64,000 bases of DNA, from IMG/VR virus record IMGVR_UViG_3300009180_002437, one strand, 5' to 3'. Each line of letters begins with the position of its first letter. Positions within the stretch are counted from its first letter, which is position 1. Under the pieces are notes generated by a model. That model was not told the origin of the DNA and made no database searches. It saw nothing but the letters and a program-made list of their open reading frames with translations. The stretch is from a virus (lineage: Duplodnaviria; Heunggongvirae; Uroviricota; Caudoviricetes). A program made the translations under genes and the position numbers. Positions 43,276-62,703 of the stretch are shown here, piece after piece.

Positions 43276-43305
43276 TTGCAAGGTCTAAATACAATCTGTT
43301 ATACT
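43276..43305 (+). promoter_or_regulatory. sigma70-type promoter TTGCAA-18-TATACT
   Basis: Seen upstream of the 43330 gene. Confidence 0.35.
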
Positions 43306-43329
43306 ACATTTATTATAAAAGGAAATAAA

Positions 43330-44052
43330 ATGCGAGATCATCTATTAGATTTAATCAGTCACATTCATGCATTGGGCGGCATCGACCAGCTAAGAATTTC
43401 AGGTACAGACACAGAAACAAATTTCAACGCTATTGCTGACGATCGTTCGGTGGTAATTGACGGTATGTTTATTAATCCCGTAGCAGACTTCATGGGCACA
43501 TTTGGTATGCCCAATTTGAAGAAACTTAGTATTCTATTGAACTTAAAAGAATACCAAGAAGGTGCTAAGTTAACTATGAGCCGCAAAGATACCGGAGCCC
43601 CGGATCAACTGACTTTTGTAAACACCAACGGTGACTTTAAAAACAGCTATCGTTTTATGGCAGAAGCCCTGGCTAATGAAAAGATCAAACCTCCCAAGTT
43701 TAAAGACGTTACCTGGAACGTTGAATTTGAACCTAGTGCTGCTGCTATTCTGCGTTTAAAGATGCAAGCGTCAGCTAACGAAGAAGAAAATACATTCCAA
43801 GCTAAAGTTGAAGATGGGGATCTGAAGTTTTACTTTGGTGACCATAGCTCACACGCTGGTAACTTTGTATTCCAACCTGATGTAGGTGGTGATATCAAAC
43901 GTGCATGGCAATGGCCCGTTAAGACAGTTATTGGCATTTTGGATTTAGCTGGTGACAAAATTATGCGTATTAGCGATGGCGGTGCTACACAAATCATTGT
44001 TAACTCTGGTTTGGCAATCTATACTTTCATTATTCCAGCGCAGACAAAGTAA
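43330..44052 (+). CDS. possible sliding clamp (gp45-like); otherwise hypothetical
   Basis: ATG at 43330 with AAAGGAAAT Shine-Dalgarno site. The 240-aa length and segmental resemblance to T4 gp45 (..NLKKLSILLNL.., ..EENTF..) support only a weak call. Confidence 0.35.
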   Translation: MRDHLLDLISHIHALGGIDQLRISGTDTETNFNAIADDRSVVIDGMFINPVADFMGTFGMPNLKKLSILLNLKEYQEGAKLTMSRKDTGAPDQLTFVNTNGDFKNSYRFMAEALANEKIKPPKFKDVTWNVEFEPSAAAILRLKMQASANEEENTFQAKVEDGDLKFYFGDHSSHAGNFVFQPDVGGDIKRAWQWPVKTVIGILDLAGDKIMRISDGGATQIIVNSGLAIYTFIIPAQTK

Positions 44053-45654: not shown

Positions 45655-46562
45655 AGAGTCTTGTTATAGGTATGGGCATCGGCCAGTTATATCTTCATGT
45701 ATTAGTTGAGTTAGGTCACGAAGTTGTTACTGTTGATAGTGATGCTGCTAAATCAGCCGATTATACTAACGTAAAATCAGCATTACAGGAACACGCATAT
45801 TTTGATACAGTAAACATTTGTACTCCTAACTTTACTCATTTGGAGATAGCAAGGGCTGTAGCTAAACATGCCAGGATCGTGTTCATTGAAAAACCAGGGT
45901 TAGAAACTTCAGCACAATGGAAACATCTATGTAATGAGTTTCCCGACACACGTTTTATGATGGTTAAGAATAATCAATATCGTGATAATATTAATGTATT
46001 AGCACAACTAGCACATAAGGCAACGATTATTAATCTAACATGGAACAACAACGATCGTGTTCCTAACCCTGGCACTTGGTTTACCACGTATGATTTATCG
46101 TTTGGTGGAGTAAGTAGAGATTTAATTCCACACTTATTAAGTTTATTCCAATCGCTGTCAGGCTTTACTCATGATCAAGCTAAACTAGATTACGAAACAG
46201 TGGATCAACGTTGGCAATTAAAAGACTTAATCAAAACTGACTATGGCATTGTAAATCCTAATGGAGTATATGATGTCGAAGATCATATAGAATTGCATTT
46301 TAATGACGCACAAGGCCGTAAGTGGTTTATTGAAAGTGACTGGCGTACACTAAATGGTGACGATCGCAGTATTCTAATGATATTTGCGGATGGGTCTCGT
46401 TATTATTATGAATTAGGCTTGTGTCCTGAAGATGCGTATAAGCGTATGATTGATACTGCTGTTAAAATGACGGACGTCGACGCATACTGGCAACATCAAT
46501 ATGAGTTGGATATGTGGATACATAAAACAATTGAATCGCTTGATTTAGTGGGGGCAACATGA
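45651..46562 (+). CDS. Gfo/Idh/MocA-family NAD(P)-dependent oxidoreductase
   Basis: Rossmann N-terminus MKSLVIGMGIGQ plus ICTPNFTHLEIARAVAKHARIVFIEKP (the family EKP motif). Confidence 0.55.
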   Translation: MKSLVIGMGIGQLYLHVLVELGHEVVTVDSDAAKSADYTNVKSALQEHAYFDTVNICTPNFTHLEIARAVAKHARIVFIEKPGLETSAQWKHLCNEFPDTRFMMVKNNQYRDNINVLAQLAHKATIINLTWNNNDRVPNPGTWFTTYDLSFGGVSRDLIPHLLSLFQSLSGFTHDQAKLDYETVDQRWQLKDLIKTDYGIVNPNGVYDVEDHIELHFNDAQGRKWFIESDWRTLNGDDRSILMIFADGSRYYYELGLCPEDAYKRMIDTAVKMTDVDAYWQHQYELDMWIHKTIESLDLVGAT

Positions 46563-47464
46563 GAACAAGAATTTTATATACAGATGGGAAGGGTAAGTTT
46601 ACGGAAACAGGTTGGAATAAACCCGATCCCACCGCAGATGAGATTGAAGTCAAAGCCGTTATGACCGGAGTATGCCGCAGCGACATTGACATGATGACTG
46701 GGGGCTTTGGTCCATTACCCTTGGAAATGAGTGGGCACGAAGGTCTGGGCAAGGTTACTCGTGTTGGGGCAAATGTACTGGACGTACGGGTAGGCGACCT
46801 AGTCTCCACTCGCGGCGAGCCAGCATATTCCGACTACTACAATGTTCGGCAGGGAGAGTATGTATCGGTACCCGAGGCACATCCTCGATACATTATTGAG
46901 CCAGTGGCCTGTGGGTATAACCTCATCATGCAGACATATGACGAACTGCTGGCACGACATGGCGATGGCAGTCGATTGTTAATCCTGGGCAGTGGATTTT
47001 TGGCTTGGGTAGCATATAACTCATTAATCATAGAAGGATTGCGATTTGAGGTAGATGTTGTGGGCAGTAGCAACACCGCAATATGGAAAGATCGATTACA
47101 GGATAAACCCGTAGGGCAGTACGATGTTGTTATTGACCTAAGTGATAAGACTACTGTATTTGATAGCGATATATTGAATCTTGGTGCATTAGTAGTCATG
47201 GGCACACAGAAACAAGTCACAACTGATTTTAGTCAACTGCTATGGAAAGCATGTACCATGGTATTTCCCAGTCCCCGCAATCCGAGATTCCATTTAGTCA
47301 TGGCTCGTGCGGAGTTTTGGGTAAGTAAAGGTAACTTAGATGTTGACTACTTCTGGACGCAAGCGTATACTAGAGATAGTGAGTGGCAACAGGCTTTTGA
47401 CGATGGCTTAAATCGTCCCAAAAATTATAGCCGTGGTTATATTGTATGGCAGGATAACAAATGA
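46559..47464 (+). CDS. zinc-binding MDR (alcohol/threonine dehydrogenase-like) oxidoreductase
   Basis: GVCRSDIDMM ... SGHEGLGKV (GHE motif) plus a downstream Rossmann GSGFLAW. Confidence 0.55.
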   Translation: MRTRILYTDGKGKFTETGWNKPDPTADEIEVKAVMTGVCRSDIDMMTGGFGPLPLEMSGHEGLGKVTRVGANVLDVRVGDLVSTRGEPAYSDYYNVRQGEYVSVPEAHPRYIIEPVACGYNLIMQTYDELLARHGDGSRLLILGSGFLAWVAYNSLIIEGLRFEVDVVGSSNTAIWKDRLQDKPVGQYDVVIDLSDKTTVFDSDILNLGALVVMGTQKQVTTDFSQLLWKACTMVFPSPRNPRFHLVMARAEFWVSKGNLDVDYFWTQAYTRDSEWQQAFDDGLNRPKNYSRGYIVWQDNK

Positions 47465-47919
47465 TTAATCAACAACGACAACAAGCATTAGCAGAAGAAG
47501 CTATCCGTATTATGTATAAAGCAGAACGTAAAGTATGGGTAACCTTTCGCAAAGAAGGTATTCACAAGTATCCCGCAGCAGCAACAGATCCCTTACTAGC
47601 AACAGGTGATGAATATGATGTGTCATTTCTAGCTAATGAGCATAGACATATTTTCCACTTCCGTGTTTGGATTGATGTATTTCATAACGATCGTGATATT
47701 GAGTTTATTCAGTTTAAACGATGGTTAGAAAATCTTTACAAAGATGGTATTCTATCATTAGATTATAAATCATGCGAAATGATCGCAGATGATTTATATA
47801 TTAACATTTCTGCACGTTATCCTAAACGTGCGGTGTGGATTGAGGTCTCCGAAGATGGTGAGAACGGATGCCTCATTAAATACGAACTTTCTCGCCCTTC
47901 ACAAACAGTATTAATTTAA
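47461..47919 (+). CDS. hypothetical protein; possibly a second T-fold (PTPS/QueD-like) protein
   Basis: ANEHRHIFHFRVWIDV...EFIQFKRWLENL loosely parallels the QueD blocks CxxxHGHSF.V.LEI ... DFAELK. Confidence 0.25.
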   Translation: MINQQRQQALAEEAIRIMYKAERKVWVTFRKEGIHKYPAAATDPLLATGDEYDVSFLANEHRHIFHFRVWIDVFHNDRDIEFIQFKRWLENLYKDGILSLDYKSCEMIADDLYINISARYPKRAVWIEVSEDGENGCLIKYELSRPSQTVLI

Positions 47920-47929
47920 AGGAATTAAA

Positions 47930-48151
47930 ATGGCAAAGTTGTCTTTCAAGCCTAACGAACGTGCAAATCAAACTCTAGACGATCTCGAGAAGTTTTTAGA
48001 ATTCTGTAGAGATTATGGGTATCGCTACAACGAGAACGATTTATATAATTTTAAAGCGTATGCTTGGCAACAATACAACAAATTTGTTCAGGGTAAAAAT
48101 GCCAAGAACATGTGGGCCGAAGATGCACGCAGATTTGGGAAAATAAATTGA
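47930..48151 (+). CDS. hypothetical protein
   Basis: A 73-aa ORF with Shine-Dalgarno site aaagga. Confidence 0.35.
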   Translation: MAKLSFKPNERANQTLDDLEKFLEFCRDYGYRYNENDLYNFKAYAWQQYNKFVQGKNAKNMWAEDARRFGKIN

Positions 48152-49203
48152 CAGTTTTTTTAGTTGATCTAGAAGCAGTCTCAACCCGGTATACCGGGCA
48201 GTGGAAGACTCATCTTCCACTGTTACTTGAAAAGGAAGGACATAATGTCCATATTATTGACGGACCTACTGATATCCCTAATGCTACAACTCCTGGTGCT
48301 TTTCTTAATTTTGGGGGCACCAACATTTACAAAGCTGCACAAGTTGAAGCTATGGGTAGACTCTTCACCCAGGGTGAAGTTAAGCCTGGCGATCATTTTA
48401 TCTTTACAGACGCTTGGCATCCTGGTATTATTAACCTTAGATACATGAGTGAGTTACTGAAAATTCCAGTAACTACACACGGTCTATGGCATGCAGGTAG
48501 CTATGATCCTGAAGATTTTCTAGGTCGGTTAATCGGCGATAAACCCTGGGTTAGGCATGCGGAAAAAAGTTTCTTTTTTGCGTTTGATCATAACTATTTT
48601 GCCACTGATTTTCATATCAAGATGTTTGCCAAGAACTTATTTGATGCAGTGGACAATGGTGCAAACCCTTACGTAACACGAACTGGGTGGCCCATGGAAT
48701 ATATGGATGAACTACTTACCCCATACAAGAATCTAAAGAAGCGTAATCTTGTATTATTTCCACATCGCATTGCCCAGGAAAAACAAGTGGAAATATTTCG
48801 GGATCTAGCATCTAAATTACCACAGTATGAATTCATTGTGTGTCAGGATCAAGAACTAACTAAACATGAATACCATACGTTATTAGGTGAAGCAAAAGTA
48901 GTATTCAGTGCTAACCTACAGGAAACACTGGGTATCAGTTGTTACGAGGGTGCAGTTGTTAATGCTATCCCCATGGTACCTGATAGACTTAGTTATAGAG
49001 AAATGTATTATGATGAATTTAGATATGATTCTACATTTACTCAAAATTATAAATTTTATGAAAAAAGCAGACCGTATCTAGCTAAAAAACTCATGTCATA
49101 CATGAGCAACTATGAATCATTGCTGCCTTTACTGGAACAACAAGCAGCCAAATTGTCCAAGGATTTCTTTTCGGCCGGTAATTTACTATTAAATATAAGA
49201 TGA
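48148..49203 (+). CDS. GT4-like glycosyltransferase
   Basis: C-terminal ETLGISCYEGAVVNAIPMV (E-x7-E-like GT-B motif). TTG at 48148 overlaps the upstream TGA, with GGGAAAA upstream. Confidence 0.45.
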   Translation: MTVFLVDLEAVSTRYTGQWKTHLPLLLEKEGHNVHIIDGPTDIPNATTPGAFLNFGGTNIYKAAQVEAMGRLFTQGEVKPGDHFIFTDAWHPGIINLRYMSELLKIPVTTHGLWHAGSYDPEDFLGRLIGDKPWVRHAEKSFFFAFDHNYFATDFHIKMFAKNLFDAVDNGANPYVTRTGWPMEYMDELLTPYKNLKKRNLVLFPHRIAQEKQVEIFRDLASKLPQYEFIVCQDQELTKHEYHTLLGEAKVVFSANLQETLGISCYEGAVVNAIPMVPDRLSYREMYYDEFRYDSTFTQNYKFYEKSRPYLAKKLMSYMSNYESLLPLLEQQAAKLSKDFFSAGNLLLNIR

Positions 49204-49910
49204 AAATTTTAGTATGTGGTGCCTCAGTAGTAATGCCTGACCTGTCAGCCTCATGGACTCAACGCACTTGGGTACATTATTTACAACAAAAATTAAACTG
49301 TGAGATCGTAAATATAGCACGAGCAGGATGTGGAAACCAGTATATTCACGATGCAGTAATCGCAGAGGTTACTGAAAGGCCATATGATTTAGTTTTAGTA
49401 TCTTGGAATATTGCAAATCGAGTAGAATTTAGAACTCATCAAAAACTACCAATAACAGACTGGATTAGAAAAGGAAAAAATACTAATCCACACACCGAAT
49501 ATATGCAGTCAGAATGGATATGGCCACATACTGCTGACAATATAATGCCTTCTGAAGAAGCGGCGGAAAATAAAAATGAATTATTCCGACGTCGATTTCT
49601 CACTATTCCAACCTATGAAATCAATCATCAGATAATGTTAACCCAAGCATTGTCACTTCAGTCTACACTTAAATCCTACGGTATACCATATACCTTTGTC
49701 TGGTACCGAACGCTGTTACGGCTCAAACAGTTTAAAAATTATTACAATAAAATTGACTGGAATTTCGTGCATCCTGATAGTCTTTTTAGACAGGCCAAAA
49801 ACAAGAAGATGTGGGATGACAAATCTCTACATCCTACTGATGAAGCGTATAGATGGTATGCCGATGAGATGTACAAGTTCCTTAATGACAGGAATCTAAT
49901 AAAGCCCTAG
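49200..49910 (+). CDS. SGNH/GDSL-like hydrolase (block V DxxH present; block I is a GAS variant)
   Basis: ILVCGASVV and DKSLHPTDEAYRWYA. Confidence 0.4.
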   Translation: MKILVCGASVVMPDLSASWTQRTWVHYLQQKLNCEIVNIARAGCGNQYIHDAVIAEVTERPYDLVLVSWNIANRVEFRTHQKLPITDWIRKGKNTNPHTEYMQSEWIWPHTADNIMPSEEAAENKNELFRRRFLTIPTYEINHQIMLTQALSLQSTLKSYGIPYTFVWYRTLLRLKQFKNYYNKIDWNFVHPDSLFRQAKNKKMWDDKSLHPTDEAYRWYADEMYKFLNDRNLIKP

Positions 49911-50961
49911 ATATTTTTCCTGCTGGGCTAAGTGGAATACTATCAACACACTTGAGTACTGCTGGTTTGCAATGTTTACCAAGGCTGATCAAAAAGTTCT
50001 TGATAGTATCTTCATCGCATGTACCTACATATAGACACTTAACATGATCTGTACCAAATACCACACATTCCTGCATACCCGGAATGTTCTGTAGTAACTG
50101 TCGTTCGATACTCACAGGATTAATTTTAGAACCCTTGACGTTAATTTGATCACGACTACGACCCAGTATACGATAGTAACCCATTTCATCTTGGTCAGCT
50201 AGGTCTCCTGTATCGTACCAATCACCATGACAAATATTAAAACCCTTGATCATCAAATGACCATTTTCAATTTTAGCTTCTATGCCATCAGGCAATCCTA
50301 CTGTGCCAACTCGTTGTGGGCCGGCAAGTGGATTAGTGAAACAGTGACTCATTGCTTCTGTCATACCAAACGCTTCTACTATAGGAACATTAAACTTTGC
50401 GCTTAATTTGTGATATAAATCGTGTGACATAGGAGCACTGGCAGAACGTATAAATCTTAAATTGTCAAAATTTAATTCAGCAATAACTCTTAGTACATCA
50501 GGAATGGCAGTTATAAAAGTTGGCTTAGTAGAGGGAAAGGTTTTAATGTCTTTCATAGTAACGTAGGTAGTTTCGCATCCTGCTAATTGCGCCGCCCAGT
50601 AAAAACCCTGCCCATGCGCATGCCATAAGCTCATGATGCTGGTATATCTATCGTTAGCTGTCAAGTTGTATGATCTAACAATAGTAGCAGCCATGTTGTT
50701 TAGATGTGCTTGTGTAAAGCTACAAAACTTACTATCTCCTGTGGTGCCTGATGTATACCAAAGTACTCTTTCGTTAGGATAGTCATTACCATTTCTAACT
50801 TTTTCTTGATCTCGAGTGATGTATAAACTCCAGTCGGAATTTTCCAATAGGTATCGGTTCCTAGCCTCAGGGGCATTAGGATTTATGATCATTATCGAAT
50901 GATCTTTTAACTGGGGAATAAAATCTTGTGGATTGTCCACACATAAGACGGCACGTTTCAT
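49882..50961 (-). CDS. adenylate-forming enzyme (acyl/aryl-AMP ligase, DltA-sized)
   Basis: AMP-binding motif WYTSGTTGDSKF, plus YDTGDLA and RSRDQINVKGSKI. The likely start is MKRAVLCVD at 50961; the ORF-track start 50997 lies upstream. Confidence 0.65.
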   Translation of the reverse strand: MKRAVLCVDNPQDFIPQLKDHSIMIINPNAPEARNRYLLENSDWSLYITRDQEKVRNGNDYPNERVLWYTSGTTGDSKFCSFTQAHLNNMAATIVRSYNLTANDRYTSIMSLWHAHGQGFYWAAQLAGCETTYVTMKDIKTFPSTKPTFITAIPDVLRVIAELNFDNLRFIRSASAPMSHDLYHKLSAKFNVPIVEAFGMTEAMSHCFTNPLAGPQRVGTVGLPDGIEAKIENGHLMIKGFNICHGDWYDTGDLADQDEMGYYRILGRSRDQINVKGSKINPVSIERQLLQNIPGMQECVVFGTDHVKCLYVGTCDEDTIKNFLISLGKHCKPAVLKCVDSIPLSPAGKISRALLDSCH

Positions 50962-50968
50962 GCAGATA

Positions 50969-50997
50969 TTTATATAGCCATAATGGTAGCGTATCAA
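50969..50997 (-). promoter_or_regulatory. sigma70-type promoter on the minus strand (TTGATA-17-TATAAA)
   Basis: Read as the reverse complement of 50969-50997. It diverges from the plus-strand promoter. Confidence 0.45.
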
Positions 50998-51493: not shown

Positions 51494-52186
51494 ATGGCGG
51501 GATACTTAGGTGACAGCATTCGTCGCAGAATGCAAGCAGATGGTAAGAGATTTTGGGCCGGCGACAACATCAGTGACTACGTTACTGAAGAAGATAAAAG
51601 GATTCTAATTAACGAAGCCACAGAGGCGTTCGAAACTGTACTAGAAAGTCTATTGATCGACATTGACGCTGATCCCAATAGTCAAGGCACAGCGCATAGA
51701 TTGGCCAAAATGTATTTTAACGAAATTATGGCAGGCAGATATGAGCCTGCCCCAGATTGTACAGCGTTTCCAAATGATTCGGAGAATAGATATGAAGGTA
51801 TGTTGGTCGTGCGCAGTGAGTTGCGTAGTATGTGCAGTCACCACCATCAGCCTGTTACTGGTGTTGCCTACATTGGAATCCTTGCCGCAAATAAACTTAT
51901 CGGGCTATCTAAGTATACTAGGATTGCTCAGTGGTGTGCTCGCCGTGGTACTCTGCAGGAAGAGCTCTGTAACGACATCGCCCGAGAAATAATGCGAGCA
52001 ACCGACAGTGAGGATGTGGGTGTTTATATTCAAGCCATACACGGCTGCTGCGAAAATCGCGGAATTATGGCACACAGTAGTTTAACACAGACTACAGTAT
52101 TGAAAGGTGCGTTCAAGGAACACATGGATACAAAGAAGGAATTCTTTGATAATATTAAACTACAACAAGACTTTGCCCCACGATAG
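51494..52186 (+). CDS. folE: GTP cyclohydrolase I
   Basis: MCSHHHQPVTGVAYIGI...GLSKYTRIAQWCARRGTLQEEL aligns with the FolE CEHH/GLSK/R-QE active-site block. Confidence 0.75.
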   Translation: MAGYLGDSIRRRMQADGKRFWAGDNISDYVTEEDKRILINEATEAFETVLESLLIDIDADPNSQGTAHRLAKMYFNEIMAGRYEPAPDCTAFPNDSENRYEGMLVVRSELRSMCSHHHQPVTGVAYIGILAANKLIGLSKYTRIAQWCARRGTLQEELCNDIAREIMRATDSEDVGVYIQAIHGCCENRGIMAHSSLTQTTVLKGAFKEHMDTKKEFFDNIKLQQDFAPR

Positions 52187-53639: not shown

Positions 53640-54284
53640 ATGGCAAATAACCCCCACCAGCAAGCACTAAGTGATTACTTCGATGCTCGCATCAATCATT
53701 ATCATCACACAAAATCTGGTAACACAGTAGGGCCAGTCTTGCAAAAAAGTCTAGCAGATAACGTAGAGCAGGCATTGAGTAGCGTGCCATCAACTGTGCA
53801 ATACAAGTACACCAGTACAAAAGAATATCACGACGCTTTTCCCTGCGCCTACAGACAGTGGCGAGCAGATAGCCACTGTAATTTAATACATGGCTACAGC
53901 TTTAGTATGAAGTTTTACTTTGGCACCAACGACCTGGATGTACGCAACTGGGCAGCAGACTACGGTGGACTCAAAGAGCTAAAAGACACACTAGAAGATC
54001 AGTTTGATCATACATTGCTAGTAGCAGAAGATGATCCAGAACTGGAGACATTTAAACTGCTGCAATCTAAGAACATGGCCAAGCTGACTATTTTGCCACG
54101 TTTAGGTTGTGAAGGATTAGCTGACATGCTGTACCGGTATGTTAATGGCGTTTATATTCCTGACATGTGGGGAACGGCAGAAGCAGATAGACTTTGGTGC
54201 TATCGTGTAGAAGTACGCGAAACACAAAGCAATATGGCTTACAGAGAAGGACATAGAGAATGGCATGAGGATTTATTAATATGA
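53640..54284 (+). CDS. queD: QueD-like 6-carboxytetrahydropterin synthase (PTPS/T-fold) with an N-terminal extension
   Basis: SHCNLIHGYSFSMKFYFG and DYGGLKELKDTLEDQFDHTLL parallel the QueD blocks KCGRLHGHSF.V.LEI and DFAELK...LDHHYL. The second zinc His of HGH is replaced by Tyr. Confidence 0.5.
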   Translation: MANNPHQQALSDYFDARINHYHHTKSGNTVGPVLQKSLADNVEQALSSVPSTVQYKYTSTKEYHDAFPCAYRQWRADSHCNLIHGYSFSMKFYFGTNDLDVRNWAADYGGLKELKDTLEDQFDHTLLVAEDDPELETFKLLQSKNMAKLTILPRLGCEGLADMLYRYVNGVYIPDMWGTAEADRLWCYRVEVRETQSNMAYREGHREWHEDLLI

Positions 54285-54589
54285 GTTCCAAAGAATATGA
54301 CGAAACCCTACAACTCGATCGTAGGGTAATGGAAGCTCTGGGCATACTGCAAGAGGAGTGTGCTGAGGTTATAGTTGAAGTTAGTAAATGTCGGAGATTT
54401 GGAATCGACAGTGAACATTATACTACCAAAGAACTGCACAAAGATATGCTAGCACAGGAGATCGGCGATGTAATGTGCATGGTGGATATATTGGTTGAGC
54501 AGGGTGTAATTGATAGAGCTGAACTGATTCTGGCCAGGGAACGTAAAAGAGAAAAACTTAAACGATGGTCCAAGATCTTTGAAGATTAG
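54281..54589 (+). CDS. MazG-like nucleoside triphosphate pyrophosphohydrolase
   Basis: All-alpha EE..E...GD pattern: LQEECAEVIVEV ... AQEIGDVMCMVDIL. Confidence 0.5.
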   Translation: MSSKEYDETLQLDRRVMEALGILQEECAEVIVEVSKCRRFGIDSEHYTTKELHKDMLAQEIGDVMCMVDILVEQGVIDRAELILARERKREKLKRWSKIFED

Positions 54590-54646: not shown

Positions 54647-55474
54647 ATGGCCAAGTCCACAAATGAATATAAAATAGCAGTATTATTACCCACCAGAGGT
54701 AGAACTACAGCACTAAAGCTCAGTATTATTAGTATTTTTAACCGTGTACTTGACCTAGATGGAGTCCAACTATTACTGGGATTCGATAATGATGACGAAG
54801 TTGGGTTAGGTTATTTCTCCACAGATATTCAACCCTGGATGGAAGAAAAAGGAATCAACTATACGGTAATGGTTTTTGAACCCATGGGATATAACGGTCT
54901 AAATCGTTACTACAATGGGCTGGCGGCGCAGGCAACCGCCGATTGGCTATTTGTATGGAATGATGATGCACTCATGGAGACAACAGGCTGGGACAAAGTT
55001 GTAACCAGCCATACTGGCGAGTTCAAACTACTTAAAATTCACGTACATCGTGAACATCCGTATTCCATCTTCCCCATCTATCCCAAGGAATGGTATGACT
55101 TATTTGGATTCGTGTCACGTCACCAAATGACCGATGCCGAACTTAGTCAAATTGCATATATGCTGGACATTATGGAAATTGTGGAAATTTATGCCACACA
55201 TGATAGACATGATTTAACTGGCAATAATAACGACACTACATATCAAAAACGTGATATGCTGGAAGGTAATCCTAATAATCCACTGGACTTTCATCATAAA
55301 TCATATGGAAATGGCAGACTAATGGACGCTGAACATATCTCTACGCATTTAGCCGCAAAAGGTGTAGATCTTACTTTTTGGCACAATGTTAAACTGGGAA
55401 AACAAGATCCCTGGGAAAAACTTAGGGCCAATGATATCAACAAACAAATGACACAAACACCGGTAAAGAGATAA
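54647..55474 (+). CDS. putative glycosyltransferase (GT-A-like, DD motif)
   Basis: KIAVLLPTRGR ... FVWNDDA. The call is weak. Confidence 0.3.
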   Translation: MAKSTNEYKIAVLLPTRGRTTALKLSIISIFNRVLDLDGVQLLLGFDNDDEVGLGYFSTDIQPWMEEKGINYTVMVFEPMGYNGLNRYYNGLAAQATADWLFVWNDDALMETTGWDKVVTSHTGEFKLLKIHVHREHPYSIFPIYPKEWYDLFGFVSRHQMTDAELSQIAYMLDIMEIVEIYATHDRHDLTGNNNDTTYQKRDMLEGNPNNPLDFHHKSYGNGRLMDAEHISTHLAAKGVDLTFWHNVKLGKQDPWEKLRANDINKQMTQTPVKR

Positions 55475-56703
55475 TGAGTAAAATTACAGAAAGTAACCAT
55501 ATGTGGCAATGCCTAATTACTGGGGCGCCGGTGACAAGGGTATTGGATTTTGGGCAGCATGCCTACGCCGATACCTTTATCGCCGAGGATCAGTTAAAAT
55601 TAGCTGAACCTGTATTCCCATTAGAAGTACATCTAAATACCGAATCAGGCGGATTGCAACTGGGCTACGTGAGCGATGCTAAGGATAGATATAACTTATA
55701 CAGCTATAGCTACACCAGTTCAAACTCCACCACCGCCAGGAATCATTGGGACGAGTATGCTGCAACAATCAAAGGTCGATTCAAGCCCCAGGGCTTGGTG
55801 GTGGAGATCGGCAGTAATGATGGATACCTAATTAAACAATTTCAAGATGACGGGGTAACCGCATTAGGTGTTGACTCATCCAAAGCCATGTGTGACATTG
55901 CCAAAGCTGCAGGTGTTAAAACAGTCAAAGGTCTGTTTGACATATCGCTAGCTGATAAATTGAAAGAAAAACATGGCCTTGCCAAGGTGATCATGGCCAA
56001 CAACGTGTTTAATCACGCTAACGATCCCATTAACTTTGCTATTGGCATAACACACCTATTGGACAAAGATGGTATATTTGTTTTTGAAGTCCCTTACTGG
56101 GCCAGTATGGTAGAAAGCGGCCGCTTTGTGGATATGGTATACCACGAACACATTTCTTACTTTACCATTAAAAGTGTTTGGAATTTATTGCAACAAGTTG
56201 GCTTAACTATCGCGGACTACGATGTAGTCGATTATCATGGTGGTAGCCTACGTGTGATAGCCAAAATGGATACTGGTGATGGAACACCTATTCTTGTGCA
56301 GTCGGCTATTGAACGAGAAACGGCCATGGGGTTATTCAATCATAAGTTCTACAAGAAGTTGCAGGCTAAATTTGTACAACAACGTAATACCTGGCTCCGT
56401 AACTTTTATCAAATATTGGCTGATGAACCTGATGCTGTCATTATCGGAGTCGGTGCCGCAGCCAAGGCCAATACCTGGCTTACCTGGCATAAATTAGATA
56501 AAACATTACTGCATTGTATTACTGATGCTAGTGAATTCAAACAGGGTAAGTACACCCCACTATCACGTATCCCAATTAAAAGTGATGATGAGTTTGCGCT
56601 ACACGAAAAACCATATGCATTGGTGTTAAGCTGGAACATTGGAGAACCACTTAAACAAGCATTATTAAAAATTAATCCCAACACAAGGTTCATATCACAA
56701 TGA
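55474..56703 (+). CDS. NDP-hexose C-methyltransferase (TylC3/CloU-like: zinc-binding N-domain plus class-I MTase)
   Basis: N-terminal CLITGAPVTRVLDFGQHAYADTF (putative Zn-binding domain). VVEIGSNDGYL (motif I). C-methyltransferase-type C-terminal domain. Confidence 0.6.
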   Translation: MSKITESNHMWQCLITGAPVTRVLDFGQHAYADTFIAEDQLKLAEPVFPLEVHLNTESGGLQLGYVSDAKDRYNLYSYSYTSSNSTTARNHWDEYAATIKGRFKPQGLVVEIGSNDGYLIKQFQDDGVTALGVDSSKAMCDIAKAAGVKTVKGLFDISLADKLKEKHGLAKVIMANNVFNHANDPINFAIGITHLLDKDGIFVFEVPYWASMVESGRFVDMVYHEHISYFTIKSVWNLLQQVGLTIADYDVVDYHGGSLRVIAKMDTGDGTPILVQSAIERETAMGLFNHKFYKKLQAKFVQQRNTWLRNFYQILADEPDAVIIGVGAAAKANTWLTWHKLDKTLLHCITDASEFKQGKYTPLSRIPIKSDDEFALHEKPYALVLSWNIGEPLKQALLKINPNTRFISQ

Positions 56704-57107
56704 AATATTATAATGTCGCAATTAACACCGAGCCCGGACTAGGCTCATTCCAAGACGATCGTGGATCTATCGTAGATATCTTTTATAAAAAGGCCATCAA
56801 TCACGGATGTATCATTAGTAATAATCCCGGTGCCGTTCGTGGTAATCACTATCATAATCATACTGTACAGTATACCTATGTTATTGCAGGTGACCTAACT
56901 TATTACTCACAACCAGCAGACAAATCCGAACCAGTATCCACTTACGTGGCAGTTACTGGAGACGTCATTATCAGTGATCCCAAAGAAATTCATGCTATGA
57001 AAGCTGGTGAGTTTGGATGTGTTTTTATAGCCTTTGCCGAAGGCCCACGTGGTGGCGAAGATTACGAAACAGATACAGTAAGAGTTGATTCTATTATTCC
57101 TGAATGA
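56700..57107 (+). CDS. cupin-fold sugar 3,4-ketoisomerase (FdtA/WxcM-like)
   Basis: DDRGSIVDIFYKK ... AVRGNHYHNH matches FdtA E-RGS...RG-H-H. Confidence 0.55.
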   Translation: MKYYNVAINTEPGLGSFQDDRGSIVDIFYKKAINHGCIISNNPGAVRGNHYHNHTVQYTYVIAGDLTYYSQPADKSEPVSTYVAVTGDVIISDPKEIHAMKAGEFGCVFIAFAEGPRGGEDYETDTVRVDSIIPE

Positions 57108-57700
57108 AAACAGTAGTTATATTTGGAGGAAGTGGTGGGATAGGTAAAGCCACATGTGAAGTCTTTGCCGCGGCTGGGTATACAGTACACCCTGTTAGTA
57201 GTAAACAAATTGACTTTTTATGGGAACAAAGTCAATTTCAAGTAGATAACTTGTTGAAACAAATTTTGCCCGACGTGGTGGTCAACTGCGTTGGGCATTT
57301 TGATGACGCCAACAAAGAGCCTCATTTTAAAACAATGAACATTAACGTAGGCTCTAACTGGAGTATCATTAAACATTACATAGAAAACGTTAGTACCAAG
57401 CCAGTTAAAATTATCATGGTGGGTTCCAGTGCTTACAAGGCCGGTCGAAAGGCCTATATTTTGTACGCTGCTAGTAAGGCAGCACTATATAATATGTGGC
57501 AAGGCGCTTGCGAGCATTTTACGGGGTCAAATGTGTCATTAGGTTTGATTAACCCAGTAAGAACTCGTACACCGATGATAGATATGTCAACTAAAGATAT
57601 TTGTCTAGAGCCAATGGATGTAGCACAAGCAATTTTAAATATGACATCAGTCAGTGGTAACGAACTGGTTGATATGAAGTATCCAGAGGAAACAAAATGA
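57104..57700 (+). CDS. short-chain dehydrogenase/reductase (SDR)
   Basis: VVIFGGSGGIGKA (TGxxxGIG) and YAASKAAL (YxxxK). Confidence 0.6.
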   Translation: MKTVVIFGGSGGIGKATCEVFAAAGYTVHPVSSKQIDFLWEQSQFQVDNLLKQILPDVVVNCVGHFDDANKEPHFKTMNINVGSNWSIIKHYIENVSTKPVKIIMVGSSAYKAGRKAYILYAASKAALYNMWQGACEHFTGSNVSLGLINPVRTRTPMIDMSTKDICLEPMDVAQAILNMTSVSGNELVDMKYPEETK

Positions 57701-58473
57701 AAATTGGAATTATAGGCAAGGGAACGGTAGGCAAGGCAGTATACGAAGGGCTTAATCACTTGGGACATGAAATGAGTTTCTTTGATCCTGCGTATGATGG
57801 GTCAACACTCGGTGATGTGTTGGGTACAGATTGTGTGTTTATCAGTGTACCAACTAACCAAGCAGCAAATGGAGATTGTGATACCAGTATCGTGGAAAGT
57901 GTTATTTCAGCATTACACGCAGCCGAATATACAGGACTAGTCAGTATCAAAAGTACAGTAGTTCCCGGCACTTGTGATCGTTTATCAGCAGCATATCCTA
58001 AACTACGTATTTGTTCAGTACCAGAATTTCTCCGTGCCAAGACAGCATTAGCTGACTTTATGTATAACCATGATTTACTAATTATCGGCAGCACTCGTGA
58101 TGAAGATTATGTCATGATGAGAAAAATACATGGCAACTTGCCTAAGAATGTGGCTTGTGTTAGGCCAGCAGAAGCAGAAGTTGTAAAATACTTTAACAAC
58201 GTTAATCACGCTACACAAATTATATTTGCCAATATTGCCTATGCTGTATGTAAGAAGCTGGGTGTTGACTATGACAATGTATATAACGCTATCATTCAGC
58301 GTGATAGTATTAATCCAGCTTACCTAATGTGTAATGAGAATCTGCGTGGATTTGGCGGTCATTGTTTGCCCAAGGATACCAGTGCTTGGAACAATTTAGT
58401 TAAAAGTTTAGGGCTAGAGTTTTCAATGATCCAAGCCCTAATTGATGACAACGCAAAGGTGAACAATGAGTAA
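57697..58473 (+). CDS. UDP-glucose/GDP-mannose dehydrogenase-family protein (short, lacks the C-terminal UDP-binding domain)
   Basis: MKIGIIGKGTVGKAV Rossmann fold, and the catalytic GFGGHCLPKDT (GGxCxxKD). Only 258 aa. Confidence 0.55.
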   Translation: MKIGIIGKGTVGKAVYEGLNHLGHEMSFFDPAYDGSTLGDVLGTDCVFISVPTNQAANGDCDTSIVESVISALHAAEYTGLVSIKSTVVPGTCDRLSAAYPKLRICSVPEFLRAKTALADFMYNHDLLIIGSTRDEDYVMMRKIHGNLPKNVACVRPAEAEVVKYFNNVNHATQIIFANIAYAVCKKLGVDYDNVYNAIIQRDSINPAYLMCNENLRGFGGHCLPKDTSAWNNLVKSLGLEFSMIQALIDDNAKVNNE

Positions 58474-59365
58474 AATCTTAATCACAGGTGCTAGTGGACT
58501 GTTAGGGACGGAATTTTGTCACCAACTTAAGGCAGCTGGACATGAAGTATGGGCAGTAGATAATCATAGCCGTAGTTCGACTATCCCTCCATGTGACGAA
58601 TGGCATAAGATGGATCTATTGGCAAATGATAGATTTATTGGACTAGCATCATTGCCCCGTGACTTTGACTACATTTATCACTATGGTGCAATCAACGGCA
58701 CTACTAACTTTTATAAGATGCCCAACAAGGTATTGGAAAACAACTTTGTCAGTGATATCAATATTTTCAACTTTGCCAAGAAGTGTACTAATCTTAAACG
58801 ATTGGTATACGCCTCAAGTTCGGAAGTGGTAGCAGATGATCCAGTTAGTCCCGTACCAGAAAACTCAGATGTATTCATCAAGGATATACATAACGCACGT
58901 TGGAGTTATCGTCTGGCCAAAATTACCAGTGAAAACTTTTTGGCTAATTCTGATCTACCATATGTTATGATACGTTATTTTAATGTGTATGGTGCAAATT
59001 CAAAGCAGGGGCATTTTCTCGGTGACCAAATTGACAAGATTAAAAATGGTGTCTTTTCGGTTATAGGTTCACATGAAACACGTTCGTTCTGTCATGTGAG
59101 CGATGCTATTCGTGCCAGTATCTATGTTGCTGAAAATGCCAATCGTGTACTGGTAAACATTGGTAATGATCGTGAAATATCAATTGGTGATGCGGTTCGT
59201 GTTATAGCAACCGAACTTGGGCATCCTGATGCTGTATTCGAAGAATTGCCCAGCATGTCGGGATCGGTTGCTAATCGGCGTCCTGACATTACCAAACTAC
59301 GTGAAATTATGCCCGATTATTCGCCCATGAGTTTTGAAGAAGGTATTCGGCAAATTTTAAGTTGA
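58466..59365 (+). CDS. NAD-dependent sugar epimerase/4,6-dehydratase (extended SDR)
   Basis: ILITGASGLLG and YRLAK (YxxxK). Confidence 0.6.
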   Translation: MSKILITGASGLLGTEFCHQLKAAGHEVWAVDNHSRSSTIPPCDEWHKMDLLANDRFIGLASLPRDFDYIYHYGAINGTTNFYKMPNKVLENNFVSDINIFNFAKKCTNLKRLVYASSSEVVADDPVSPVPENSDVFIKDIHNARWSYRLAKITSENFLANSDLPYVMIRYFNVYGANSKQGHFLGDQIDKIKNGVFSVIGSHETRSFCHVSDAIRASIYVAENANRVLVNIGNDREISIGDAVRVIATELGHPDAVFEELPSMSGSVANRRPDITKLREIMPDYSPMSFEEGIRQILS

Positions 59366-59390
59366 CAAAAATCTATGGGTAATGTATAAT
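59362..59390 (+). promoter_or_regulatory. perfect consensus sigma70 promoter TTGACA-17-TATAAT (overlaps the upstream stop codon)
   Basis: TTGACA at 59362-59367 and TATAAT at 59385-59390. AGGAG before the ATG at 59421. Confidence 0.6.
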
Positions 59391-59420
59391 TTCTAAATAC
59401 ATTATCCCATAGGAGCTCTA

Positions 59421-59975
59421 ATGAAAAAAGTTCATTACACAGATCAAGATATTCGCAGTTTTGTTCATAAAATTATCCGTGATATGCGTCGTGATAATTG
59501 GCAACCTGATTACATCGTAGGACTCACTCGCGGCGGTCTTACACCAGCTAACATGCTGAGTCAATATTTAGAAATCCCCATGGAATGTTTAAAGGTCAGT
59601 TTACGTGACAGCAGCACACAATCCGAAACTAATTGCTGGATGTCGGAAGATGCTTTTGGGTACGTGGATACTGCTGTTATCCCCAGGCCAGAAGAGTCCA
59701 TTACTACAGATCCCAGCCGTCGCAAAAAAATTCTTATTGTAGATGACATCAATGATACTGGTGCTACACTTAATTGGATCAAGAAAGATTGGCCCGGTAG
59801 TTGTTTGCCCGATGATCCTGCGTGGAATGAGATTTGGGGACAGAATGTTCGCTTTGCTGTGCTGGTGGACAATTTGGACAGTAAATTTCATGATGTTGAC
59901 TACACGGGCACTGAGATCAATAAAGCCGAAGAAGATGTTTGGTGTGTATTCCCCTGGGAAAATTGGTGGGTATGA
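59421..59975 (+). CDS. type-I phosphoribosyltransferase, xanthine-guanine PRTase (Gpt)-like
   Basis: PRPP loop KILIVDDINDTGATL. The TRGGLTPANMLSQYL and C-terminal FPWENWWV segments parallel E. coli Gpt. Confidence 0.6.
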   Translation: MKKVHYTDQDIRSFVHKIIRDMRRDNWQPDYIVGLTRGGLTPANMLSQYLEIPMECLKVSLRDSSTQSETNCWMSEDAFGYVDTAVIPRPEESITTDPSRRKKILIVDDINDTGATLNWIKKDWPGSCLPDDPAWNEIWGQNVRFAVLVDNLDSKFHDVDYTGTEINKAEEDVWCVFPWENWWV

Positions 59976-60200
59976 AAACAGATTGGATCACCATTACCTG
60001 CTCACACAACCTGTGTCTGTGGAGCGACTGTTATAAATGGTGTCTGAGTACGTGGGGGCGTAATAACGAATGGGTCTATATGGGCCCGGGTAAATTTCAT
60101 TTTAAGAACTCGTGTGATGCGATGTTTTTTAGATTGAAATGGTTATAAAGCACTTTCCAGGAAACTGGTGAGTAATTGATTTTTAAAATAGGAGATTATT

Positions 60201-60905
60201 ATGTTTAATACAAATCAGATAGATACTAATACAGTAGAATTAAGTTTTCGGTCAGCAGAAGAAGTCAATAACGCAATGAGTCGCGTCTATGGATATATGG
60301 GGTTAGCAGTAATTGTATCAATGTTGGTAAGTTACTTTGTGGGAACTAGCCCGGAGTTACTAAAATTCTTTTTCACGGGTATTACAAAGTGGATCGTAAT
60401 CTTTGCTCCACTAGCAGCAGTATTTGGTATTGCTATGATATTGGCACGTAGCCCGGGCAAAAGTACTGCTCTACTATGCCTGTATGGTTTTGCGGCACTA
60501 ATGGGCCTGAGCTTTGCTACAATCTTTGCTGTGTTCACCATGGGAAGTATTGTCAGTGCATTTATGGGTGCTGCTGTATTATTTGGCACTATGAGTTTTT
60601 ATGGTTATTTTACTAAACAGAGTCTAGATAGTCTTGGTAAGTTTATGTTTATTGGATTAATCGCCATTGTTATTGCCAGTATAGTTAATATCTTTATTGG
60701 TAGTACTGTAATGCAAATGGTTATTAGTGCGTTAGCTATCATTATCTTTCTTGGATTAACTGCGTATGATACACAACAAATCCGTGAAATGGTCAGTGTT
60801 GACTCTAGTTCAGTAGTTGAAGTAACCGGTGCGTTGACATTATACCTGGACTTTATTAACATTTTCCTCAATTTGTTAAACTTGTTTGGCAATAAAAACG
60901 ACTAA
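60201..60905 (+). CDS. Bax-inhibitor-1/YccA (TMBIM) family 7-TM membrane protein
   Basis: A 234-aa polytopic protein with the family N-terminal pattern (MSRVYGYMGLAV...) and 7 hydrophobic helices. Confidence 0.55.
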   Translation: MFNTNQIDTNTVELSFRSAEEVNNAMSRVYGYMGLAVIVSMLVSYFVGTSPELLKFFFTGITKWIVIFAPLAAVFGIAMILARSPGKSTALLCLYGFAALMGLSFATIFAVFTMGSIVSAFMGAAVLFGTMSFYGYFTKQSLDSLGKFMFIGLIAIVIASIVNIFIGSTVMQMVISALAIIIFLGLTAYDTQQIREMVSVDSSSVVEVTGALTLYLDFINIFLNLLNLFGNKND

Positions 60906-60906
60906 C

Positions 60907-61269
60907 ATGAATTTTACAATTGACGAATCAAAACCCTTTGATGTAACTATACGTGAAGTCATCAGTAGTTTGGAAAATCCAGAGAATCCTACTGCTGATG
61001 ACTTAGTTAGAATTTTAAAAGGTTACCAACCTATGACCAGTGTCAGAAATGATGACAGTCCTGAGTTTAAAGCACTACGAACCCAACTGGAATCGGAAGG
61101 TTATATCAATTGTGAGCGTGGCTGGTGGAACGGCGACCGTGTACTAAAATCATTTACTTTAAATGGGATTAAATTTGAAGTAGGTAATAAGTTCTTCTCC
61201 GGTGCAGCGATGCATAACCACTTAGAATGGGAAAGAAAATATGAAAACCAGAGAACAAATCATAACTAG
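60907..61269 (+). CDS. hypothetical protein
   Basis: The ATG at 60907 follows the upstream TAA. Confidence 0.35.
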   Translation: MNFTIDESKPFDVTIREVISSLENPENPTADDLVRILKGYQPMTSVRNDDSPEFKALRTQLESEGYINCERGWWNGDRVLKSFTLNGIKFEVGNKFFSGAAMHNHLEWERKYENQRTNHN

Positions 61270-61441
61270 TATGTGTTATACTTATAGACATGACTATGGG
61301 CTCGAAAAACCTACTGGAGATAACTTTGCTAGTAAGTTATCATCAGGCACCACACAGGCAGAGCGCGAATCACTATGGCGTCAAATGGCGCAGATATTTG
61401 ATAACGATATATTACCACATATGGAATTTAAAAATGAGTAA
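61241..61441 (+). CDS. hypothetical protein
   Basis: A 66-aa ORF. Confidence 0.3.
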   Translation: MKTREQIITSMCYTYRHDYGLEKPTGDNFASKLSSGTTQAERESLWRQMAQIFDNDILPHMEFKNE

Positions 61442-62276
61442 ATTAAAAGTAGCAGAGTTGTTTTATAGTATTCAAGGTGAAGGCAGATATATGGGAGTAC
61501 CCTCAATCTTCCTACGTACATTCGGCTGTAATTTTACCTGCGATGGCTTTGGTATGCCACGCGGAGAGAAAAGTCAAGAAAGACATAATATTGTAGTAGC
61601 TAATTACCAAACATATAATGAGCTGCCATTAGTGAGTTCTGGCTGTGACTCATATGCCTCCTGGATGCCGGAATTTAAGAATCTAAGTCCATTAATGGAA
61701 ACTGATGGCATCGTAGATCGCATTATGGAGATCTTACCGTATAAACAATGGGCAATGGAACATCTAGTCATTACAGGTGGCGAGCCATTGTTAGGTTGGC
61801 AACGTGCTTATCCAAACTTGCTTAACCATGATAAGATGAAAGACTTGCGTGAAATTACTTTTGAAACTAATGGCACTCAGCCGTTAACGCCAGAGTTCAA
61901 ACATTTTCTAGGTGAATGGACTGCTGAACATTGGCATAGAGAAGTTACATTCTCGATCAGTGCTAAACTTAGTAATTCAGGCGAGTTACGTGAAGATGCT
62001 ATTAAACCTGAAGTTGTACTGGAATATCAAGACACAGGCTATGCTTACCTAAAGTTTGTAGTGGCTACTGAAGAAGATGTCGAGGAAGCCCTGGCAGTTA
62101 CACAGATTTATCAAACAGCAGGATTTAAAGGTCCAGTTTATTTGATGCCAGTCGGCGGGGTTGAAAGTGTATATGCACTTAACAATCGTCGTGTAGCAGA
62201 ACTAGCCATGGCGAACGGATTACGTTACAGTGATCGTTTACAAGTTCCACTCTTTAAAAATGAGTGGGGAACTTAA
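61434..62276 (+). CDS. queE: 7-carboxy-7-deazaguanine synthase (radical SAM)
   Basis: MSKLKVAELFYSIQGEGRYMGVPSIFLRTFGCNFTCDGFG matches the QueE N-terminus and its CxxxCxxC-type cluster motif. Confidence 0.7.
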   Translation: MSKLKVAELFYSIQGEGRYMGVPSIFLRTFGCNFTCDGFGMPRGEKSQERHNIVVANYQTYNELPLVSSGCDSYASWMPEFKNLSPLMETDGIVDRIMEILPYKQWAMEHLVITGGEPLLGWQRAYPNLLNHDKMKDLREITFETNGTQPLTPEFKHFLGEWTAEHWHREVTFSISAKLSNSGELREDAIKPEVVLEYQDTGYAYLKFVVATEEDVEEALAVTQIYQTAGFKGPVYLMPVGGVESVYALNNRRVAELAMANGLRYSDRLQVPLFKNEWGT

Positions 62277-62319
62277 GGTGTTTTTATTAACGCCAGACGC
62301 AGCATTAGGAATAATAGAT

Positions 62320-62703
62320 ATGTACAACATGATTAAAAATTGGTTTAAAAAGAAGCCAGTAGAACAAGCAGCACCAGAAGCACCGTCAACACCAGTTAAG
62401 ACGGCTAAGGATATTGCCACTGAACGAGGTGAGTCATATGTCAATATCGTCAGCATGGATATTGATCCAAATGGCATGGGCATGGGGTCGTTCGAACTAG
62501 ATTGGAACGAAAAGTTTATTGCTGATCTAGTTAGACATGGTTACATGATGGATCAAAATGATACTGATGCTGACATTGTAGATCGTTGGTTTACTAATGT
62601 ATGCCGCAATGTAGTATTGGAAACATATGAACAGTACGAAGCCATGAATAATCGTGTGGTTAAGTCTAAAGATGTTGGTGGTGGTATGAGTGAGGTTGGA
62701 TAG
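62320..62703 (+). CDS. hypothetical protein
   Basis: The ATG at 62320 is preceded by AGGA. Confidence 0.35.
   Translation: MYNMIKNWFKKKPVEQAAPEAPSTPVKTAKDIATERGESYVNIVSMDIDPNGMGMGSFELDWNEKFIADLVRHGYMMDQNDTDADIVDRWFTNVCRNVVLETYEQYEAMNNRVVKSKDVGGGMSEVG

Follow-up and report, generated by a model that had tools for sequence, protein, structure and literature searches.

The window, i.e. the whole stretch of 64,000 nucleotides of viral DNA analysed here, encodes a purine-type phosphoribosyltransferase (PRT) that we tentatively assign to the phage module for replacing guanine by 7-deazaguanine in DNA, as an accessory enzyme dedicated to it. The protein has the fold and the catalytic motifs of the 6-oxopurine phosphoribosyltransferases, its gene lies among the genes of a predicted module of this kind, and its homologues co-occur with deazaguanine genes in phages. 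We give slightly less than even weight to the reading that the PRT converts the guanine released by a DpdA-type transglycosylase to GMP, pulling the base exchange and refuelling FolE. The substrate of the enzyme would show whether the replacement precedes or follows DNA replication, and the presence of 7-deazaguanine in phage DNA currently attracts interest in research on counter-defence.

The phosphoribosyltransferase and its gene

The reading frame proposed by the first-pass annotation was confirmed with its start, stop, ribosome-binding site and Pfam domain:

59421-59975 (+): purine-type (XGPRT-like) phosphoribosyltransferase, 184 amino acids, ATG start, TGA stop; assigned from profiles, fold and invariant columns; key residues R37-G38-G39, D108-D109, D112, W174 and P178-W179
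59412-59415 (+): ribosome-binding site GGAG, 5 nt upstream of the PRT ATG, read directly
59362-59390 (+): sigma-70-type promoter, TTGACA (59362-59367), 17-nt spacer, TATAAT (59385-59390), 12/12 match

The promoter, which had been described as perfect and as the gene's own, was recovered both by reading and in a scan. The window has eight promoters that deviate from the consensus at one position at most, when 1.05 are expected, and none of 100 shuffles gave eight, indicating that the phage uses a signal of the sigma-70 type. An own promoter instead of co-transcription would suit a general auxiliary gene of purine salvage or a regulatory PRT-like protein that has no specific coupling to DpdA. 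Such a protein, which we consider unlikely, would increase the supply of GMP and GTP from degraded host nucleic acids or act as a sensor of PRPP or guanine nucleotides in the manner of PyrR, PurR and 5vog, and its position near the Que genes would mean no more than expression at the same time.

The earlier assignment to the Gpt-like type-I phosphoribosyltransferases is supported by several comparisons: The protein matches Pfam PF00156 (Pribosyltran) with E=2.2e-16 and 60 bits at a gathering threshold of 26.3, and the profile PHROG 8995 'phosphoribosyl transferase' in three stretches (E=9.1e-16, 59 bits). Among solved proteins, the nearest in sequence and fold are Pyrococcus PH0095 (1vdm), Sulfolobus HGXPRT/GpT-2 (4z1o, 4zfn), H. 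pylori XGHPRT and E. coli XGPRT; with the AlphaFold2 model (pLDDT 90), Foldseek ranked 1vdm, 4z1o/4zfn, 7kl6 and 1a95, all of them 6-oxopurine phosphoribosyltransferases, as the best PDB folds. The fold matches also include PyrR and the ppGpp-bound PRT-like protein 5vog, and this is a point in favour of a regulatory function.

In E. coli Gpt, the residues for catalysis and base binding are the R37-G-G loop, D88/D89, D92, which contacts N7, and the stacking W134; the third Asp of the PRPP loop of XGPRT and HGPRT contacts the purine N7. All of these have counterparts in the PRT: R37-G38-G39, D108/D109, D112 and W174 align with them and are (nearly) invariant, and D112 falls on E. coli XGPRT D92 and human HGPRT D137. 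The PRPP loop that had been described is present, ILIVDDINDTGATL at residues 104-117, and the segment ILIVDDINDTGAT at 104-116 combines a hydrophobic run, two acidic residues and xxDTGxT; D108, D109, G114 and T116 are conserved among the homologues. The C-terminus, which had also been called Gpt-like, reads VWCVFPWENWW and is aligned with W-x-x-(F/Q)-P-W in GpT-2, PH0095 and XGPRT, so that by alignment W174 is the base-stacking Trp. G38, D108, D112 and W174 are the only invariant columns in 18 homologues with 25-43% identity. To our knowledge, the N7-contacting Asp is absent from adenine, uracil and orotate phosphoribosyltransferases. We favour guanine as the substrate because the PRT resembles the 6-oxopurine enzymes most, in sequence as well as in fold, and because the Asp typical of these enzymes, D112, and the stacking W174 are invariant.

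The PRT thus shares with XGPRT and the archaeal 6-oxopurine enzymes the type-I fold, the RGG pyrophosphate loop, the (V/I)DDxxDTGxT motif including the third Asp, and the C-terminal W-x-x-F-P-W base-stacking motif. However, the identity to these enzymes is only 19-25%, and unlike them, the PRT family has two conserved insertions at about residues 63-100 and 125-140 and a (T/L)RD(G/S) loop motif of its own and is phage-borne and set in 7-deazaguanine modules. The best NCBIfam match is Xpt (38.7 bits, cut-off 138). The PRT falls outside the Gpt equivalog NF006613 (38.7 bits, curated cut-off 138) and outside Hpt (23.5 bits with TIGR01203, cut-off 150; 19.4 bits with NF006605, cut-off 181), and the other phage homologues reach 31-94 bits with NF006613, every one below the cut-off of 138. 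The PRT may work like Gpt, yet it fails the curated Gpt and Hpt tests, and its family, found mainly in phages and marked by the conserved insertions, appears to be a sister family.

At the position of the O6-binding Lys115 of E. coli, the PRT of the window has Asn151, and other homologues have K or R. Co-variation of the pocket residues with the end product of the pathway (DG, ADG, fdPreQ1 or preQ0) was sought, and none was found; the independence of the Lys115-aligned residue (K, R or N) from the end product suggests one common substrate, and this again supports guanine.

The deazaguanine module of the window

The description of the locus as devoted to 7-deazaguanine chemistry, with the PRT next to the Que genes, was correct. 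The following genes form the module and its surroundings:

39688-42348 (+): family-B (T4 gp43-like) DNA polymerase, phrog_262 E=3e-190; head of the syntenic block
44056-45654 (+): DpdA-like putative DNA-guanine transglycosylase (TGT fold), 532 amino acids; assigned from motifs, hhalign and predicted structure
47461-47919 (+): DpdL homologue (QueD paralogue), predicted 7-carboxy-7-deazaguanine (CDG) decarboxylase of phiST-type dDG phages
51494-52186 (+): FolE, GTP cyclohydrolase I; Pfam PF01227 E=1e-38, phiST FolE E=1e-36
53640-54284 (+): QueD-like 6-carboxytetrahydropterin synthase; Pfam PTPS E=2.5e-15, phiST QueD E=2.6e-20
54281-54589 (+): MazG-like NTP pyrophosphohydrolase; Pfam MazG E=0.0027, below cut-off; start overlaps the QueD stop
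61434-62276 (+): QueE-like radical-SAM CDG synthase; weak radical-SAM Pfam match, phiST QueE E=1e-5, family HMM

The Cellulophaga phage phiST has FolE, QueD and QueE, no QueC, and 2'-deoxy-7-deazaguanine in place of all G; its DpdL is the predicted CDG decarboxylase and its DpdA3 the predicted insertase (Cui et al. 2023, PMC10516641). In the window, FolE, QueD, QueE, DpdL and a DpdA-family transglycosylase are likewise present. The DpdL homologue matches phiST DpdL (CGPG_00067) with E=6.8e-13 in phmmer and with E=4.8e-24 when the profile of its family is used, and it also matches phrog_17812. QueC was not found in the 64 kb with an HMM built from a single sequence, and the SGGxDS motif is absent from all ORFs of at least 60 amino acids in the window. 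Since DpdL and a DpdA-like protein are present and no QueC was found, the window carries a predicted 7-deazaguanine (dDG) module of the phiST type. The predicted product of such a module is 7-deazaguanine, so if the PRT uses a deazapurine at all, the candidates are CDG or 7-deazaguanine; preQ0 and preQ1, which the first-pass annotation had put forward, are to be dropped.

The QueD proteins of the window (CNLIHGY) and of phiST (CKFLHGY; locus L083, 9212-9706 (-)) have CxxxHGY instead of the canonical CxxxHGH, so that Tyr takes the place of the second His of the zinc site. The MazG-like gene, at its place between QueD and QueE, is conserved in 14 related loci.

The 532-residue protein contains the motifs GDSGGFQ (100), VLQGG (193), GWALGG (228), MHFLG (260) and SFDCASP (292). 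Its predicted structure (pLDDT 82) has exclusively TGT-family proteins as top Foldseek matches, and hhalign to the DpdA3 profile gave a probability of 43% with E=2.5e-4. Pfam, PADLOC and PDB sequence-profile searches recognised neither this protein nor phiST DpdA3, so that motifs, hhalign and predicted structure are the sole means by which it was recognised. Other candidates were rejected: The 363-residue product of 48112-49203 showed no profile or hhalign signal to DpdA3 and weak glycosyltransferase matches only, and those of 43276-44052 (258 amino acids) and 42349-43275 (308 amino acids) gave no signal as DpdA3. The DpdA-like family has no Pfam model, is as large as the PRT family and travels with it. 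Two hypothetical proteins next to Que genes of other phages carry similar motifs and are probably unrecognised DpdA proteins: MAINES_00850 of phage MaInes (locus L085, 862-1662 (-)), with MDNS...QGE...HLLG...IDSAVP, and a protein of phage BUCT-ZZ01 (locus L001, 15254-16504), with ADSGGLQ.

The window belongs to a T4-like phage, and related contigs reach 245-344 kb; a nucleotide search with 58400-61400 against isolated phages gave no match, and the phage is known from metagenomes alone. Several further genes lie in or near the module. Genes of the sugar-nucleotide type are interspersed at 54647-59365, 45651-47464, 48112-49203 and 49882-50997 (-): a glycosyltransferase-like protein, a sugar C-methyltransferase, a cupin, an SDR, a UDP-glucose/GDP-mannose dehydrogenase-like protein and an epimerase, as well as oxidoreductases of the GFO/IDH/MocA and ADH-like types, another protein with weak similarity to glycosyltransferases and, on the opposite strand, an AMP-binding enzyme. 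In relatives (L003, L072, L274), epimerase and C-methyltransferase genes are again located between QueD and PRT, and further DNA hypermodification or modification of the host surface are possibilities for this gene set. Between PRT and QueE, 60201-60905 encodes a membrane protein of the Bax-inhibitor-1/YccA family (Pfam Bax1-I, E=5e-53), which recurs near FolE in a few relatives (L003, L042, L071, L074). The 157-residue protein encoded by 62230-62703 is located after QueE and before a 5'-3' exonuclease in 73 of 82 related loci, and its sole match is a weak one to a PHROG 'virion structural protein'. Finally, 25264-27543 encodes a ClpB-like double-AAA+ chaperone of 759 amino acids.

Association of the phosphoribosyltransferase with deazaguanine genes

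Homologues of the PRT are abundant: There are at least 7,946 environmental proteins and more than 594 IMG/VR contigs. In a set of 82 loci, made up of the 80 closest viral loci and two isolate loci, QueE (76/82), FolE (53/82) and QueD (31/82) are found within 10 kb of the PRT, and the gene order is conserved. As this linkage could be lineage synteny, distant relatives (25-44% identity) were sampled with two other queries. Among them, a compact QueE-QueD-PRT-FolE-DpdL-DpdA3 operon with overlapping genes is present in many unrelated contigs, and of the 79 loci retrieved with BUCT-ZZ01 as query, 50 have a DpdA-type gene. When only the 71 viral loci are counted in which the PRT has 6 kb or more of sequence on either side, a synthesis gene is present in 61 and a synthesis and/or DpdA gene in 65 of them; for the closest relatives within this set, the synthesis gene is present in all cases (45/45). 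Among the best cellular homologues, the synthesis gene occurs at only one of 80 loci, and this exception looks like a viral contig.

The difference between viral and cellular loci and the overlapping genes in the compact operons of unrelated lineages argue against a general salvage or regulatory protein; moreover, the fusion to FolE described below and the presence of all catalytic residues suggest that the protein catalyses a specific step of the pathway. What speaks for salvage or regulation are six of the 71 well-flanked viral loci that have no Que or DpdA gene within 10 kb (one of them is phiST, with the cluster 17 kb away), and one PRT clade without synthesis genes nearby, in which most contigs have short flanks. 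The neighbour-joining tree of the PRTs is poorly resolved and serves for description only.

PRT homologues lie inside deazaguanine modules in at least six phage lineages, with the following arrangements in isolated phages:

phiST, phi13:1, phi19:2: PRT about 17 kb from the cluster, ribonucleotide reductase three genes downstream
Synechococcus phage BUCT-ZZ01: QueE-PRT-x-QueD-FolE ... DSGG-motif gene-DpdL
Brevundimonas phage MaInes: ribonucleotide reductase-dNMP kinase-FolE-PRT, and QueC-QueD-QueE-x-gene with DpdA-like motifs, next to the polymerase
Flavobacterium phage immuto_2-6A: QueD-x-QueE-x-x-PRT-FolE ... DpdA-x-DpdN-thymidylate-kinase-like-QueF
Campylobacter CP220 group: PRT-x-radical SAM
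Queuovirinae, e.g. Pseudomonas phage NP1: PRT domain fused to the FolE N-terminus, between QueD and DpdA

The homologue of phiST is CGPG_00045. In the Queuovirinae, the fused N-terminal domain of about 135 amino acids keeps RGG, DDxxDTGxT and WIVFPWE and is followed by FolE; annotations as 'GTP cyclohydrolase' hide such fusions (L273, 6809-7702, NP1 gp36; L108, 9782-10753; L109; L110). The PRT is present in all three groups with 100% replacement of G, i.e. the phiST (dDG), CP220 (dADG) and immuto (fdPreQ1) groups, for which complete replacement has been reported (PMC10516641). The first-pass annotation had asked whether the gene co-occurs with dpdA in related phages, and this is indeed the case: The PRT accompanies DpdA-type transglycosylases as well as FolE, QueD and QueE across many unrelated phages. 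A DpdA-type gene is found in every phage examined in enough detail, namely the window phage, phiST, CP220, immuto, MaInes, BUCT-ZZ01 and NP1; the evidence is a motif match only for MaInes and one motif for BUCT-ZZ01, and it is taken from PMC10516641 for phiST and CP220.

Genes for P-loop (d)NMP-kinase-like proteins lie in or beside three unrelated clusters:

phiST CGPG_00066: locus L083, 6382-6861 (-); matches AAA_18 and AAA_33
immuto gp203: locus L191, 12618-13142
MaInes: locus L084, 7635-8300

CGPG_00066 was treated as a gene of unknown function by Cui et al. (PMC10516641). In compact cyanophage-like operons, genes for a dCTP-deaminase/dUTPase-fold protein and a DUF3310 protein directly follow DpdA3 (L094, 4432-4935, and 26 other loci), and genes for a GDP-mannose 4,6-dehydratase, the clamp and the clamp loader come after these two.

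A scan of IMG/VR that started from the phiST PRT yielded no relatives. A GTDB scan found mainly chromosomal homologues of Sphingomonadales, with genes for a LysR regulator and a protein of the adenosine-deaminase family as neighbours; this setting suggests that they form an uncharacterised family of purine-salvage phosphoribosyltransferases. These proteins (loci L198-L272, e.g. L211, 5266-8489) likewise score below the Gpt cut-off. That these nearest cellular homologues stand alone, with no Que genes nearby, also favours guanine as the substrate.

Proposed guanine recycling, a possible nucleotide-level route and known systems

If guanine is the substrate, the PRT could be integrated with the module as follows: FolE, QueD and QueE would convert GTP to the free base CDG, DpdL would decarboxylate CDG to 7-deazaguanine, and the DpdA-like transglycosylase would exchange G in the phage DNA for this base, with one free guanine coming out per exchange. 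The PRT would then use PRPP to convert the released guanine to GMP. This removal would pull the reversible exchange toward complete replacement, and GMP, via GTP, would feed FolE again, so that replacement occurs at no net guanine cost. The first-pass annotation had named GMP salvage for FolE as well as a nucleotide route from a deazaguanine base, and the analysis agrees with either. In addition to the arguments from fold, pocket and cellular homologues, from which we infer the substrate, the gene neighbourhoods point to this source of guanine, to the pull on the exchange and to this direction of the flux: A DpdA-type gene with intact TGT motifs accompanies the PRT in the phages examined in detail, and the PRT adjoins FolE in many lineages (QueD-PRT-FolE-DpdL-DpdA3 operons, MaInes, immuto and the window) and is even fused to it in the Queuovirinae. 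In the Queuovirinae phage iggy, the modification is described as partial and motif-specific (PMC10484667), which points to DpdA.

Yet, the host enzymes Gpt and Hpt could already salvage guanine. Moreover, the gene for the MazG-like NTP pyrophosphatase is translationally coupled in the operon (window and phiST, CGPG_00068 in the latter), and kinase-like genes are present in the clusters of phiST, immuto and MaInes; both fit a pathway at the nucleotide level at least as well, even if a GMP kinase would also fit recycling. Other phage systems replace a base completely before replication, as far as is known, and this speaks against recycling of guanine as well.

These points lead to the other function to be weighed, in which the PRT is a deazapurine phosphoribosyltransferase like TubE and ToyH; we regard it as possible but somewhat doubtful. 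A free 7-deazaguanine base and PRPP would yield a ribonucleotide for a pre-replicative dNTP route, with CDG, the common QueE product, as the most plausible substrate and 7-deazaguanine as the alternative. Decarboxylation by DpdL if needed, phosphorylation and reduction by ribonucleotide reductase would give dDGTP for the phage polymerase, MazG-like enzymes would exclude dGTP, and DpdA would polish residual G or have another role. As the product of QueE is a free base, a phosphoribosyltransferase is required for any dNTP route, and the phage PRT is the sole candidate. Its presence in all three complete-replacement groups, the MazG-like gene that overlaps QueD in the window and lies between QueD and QueE in relatives, the kinase-like genes (phiST CGPG_00066, the thymidylate-kinase-like gene of immuto and the dNMP kinase gene beside FolE-PRT in MaInes), and DpdN, which is PurN-like with PurN acting on a ribonucleotide, are all in line with this idea, as is the pre-replicative mode of other complete replacements. 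A modified-dGTP route has been proposed for Campylobacter phages (PMC6884629), and ADG nucleoside has been reported in CP220-infected cells, to judge from the citation in PMC10516641.

The precedent is TubE, a purine phosphoribosyltransferase of 194 amino acids that is encoded beside FolE, QueD and QueE homologues in a cluster without QueC and forms CDG ribotide from CDG and PRPP (PMC6112128). However, TubE does not accept 7-deazaguanine (PMC6112128), which counts against a deazapurine substrate of the PRT and for guanine. The constant company of a DpdA-like transglycosylase with intact motifs would make a second insertion route redundant, and a PRT fused to FolE in the Queuovirinae, where the partial and motif-specific modification (PMC10484667) points to DpdA, also speaks against it. 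The 6-oxopurine-type Asp is invariant, though a 7-deazapurine has no N7, and it would adjoin the carboxylate of CDG; on the other hand, the argument for guanine from D112 would collapse if TubE and ToyH keep this Asp.

If the PRT is a guanine sink and recycler, as we prefer, it explains how the base exchange reaches completion without net purine cost. If it is a deazaguanine phosphoribosyltransferase, a nucleotide-level route is established. The PRT would then be the missing entry point of the pre-replicative path from free CDG or DG via the ribonucleotide and dDGTP into phage DNA, for which we see a less than even chance, short of what we would call probable; such a path would account for 100% replacement in phages like phiST, CP220 and immuto as well as in the very abundant environmental T4-like lineage of the window, and it would leave open the role of the DpdA3-like and the 532-residue TGT-fold proteins.

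In the known systems, the parallels to TubE and ToyH (ACF06639.1), the Streptomyces CDG and preQ0 phosphoribosyltransferases of tubercidin and toyocamycin biosynthesis, concern size and gene context: These enzymes have about 190 amino acids and FolE, QueD and QueE neighbours, as does the PRT. This context is found in the window, and synthesis genes are present in 61 of the 71 well-flanked viral loci. The tubercidin cluster lacks QueC and combines a phosphoribosyltransferase with a decarboxylase, like PRT and DpdL (PMC6112128; bioRxiv 2026.04.15.718813). In contrast to the phage module, the product of TubE and ToyH is a secreted nucleoside antibiotic rather than DNA, the tubercidin decarboxylase is a UbiD enzyme and not a T-fold QueD paralogue, and no transglycosylase goes with TubE.

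The window and the phiST module share FolE, QueD with the CxxxHGY variant, QueE, a DpdL homologue, a TGT-fold DpdA-like protein, a MazG-like gene, the absence of QueC, a neighbouring DNA polymerase and a PRT homologue. They differ in the sugar-nucleotide genes interspersed in the module of the window and in the transglycosylase: The DpdA-like protein of 532 amino acids belongs to a subfamily different from, and much larger than, DpdA3 (259 amino acids), and the HMMs do not cross-detect. According to the published model, all such modifications are post-replicative (PMC10516641). This model contains no PRT for phiST, and the main texts of the papers on these phage systems do not mention the enzyme; the supplement of Cui et al. 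may list it. The complete-replacement model with DpdL and DpdA3 could not be reconstituted: dpdL and dpdA3 gave no dDG in E. coli, and the authors suspected missing enzymes (PMC10516641), a result that would be in agreement with a nucleotide-level route. The PRT is conserved in exactly these modules. By its genes, the module of the window belongs to the known dDG system of the phiST type, and the new point is the PRT as one of its conserved components.
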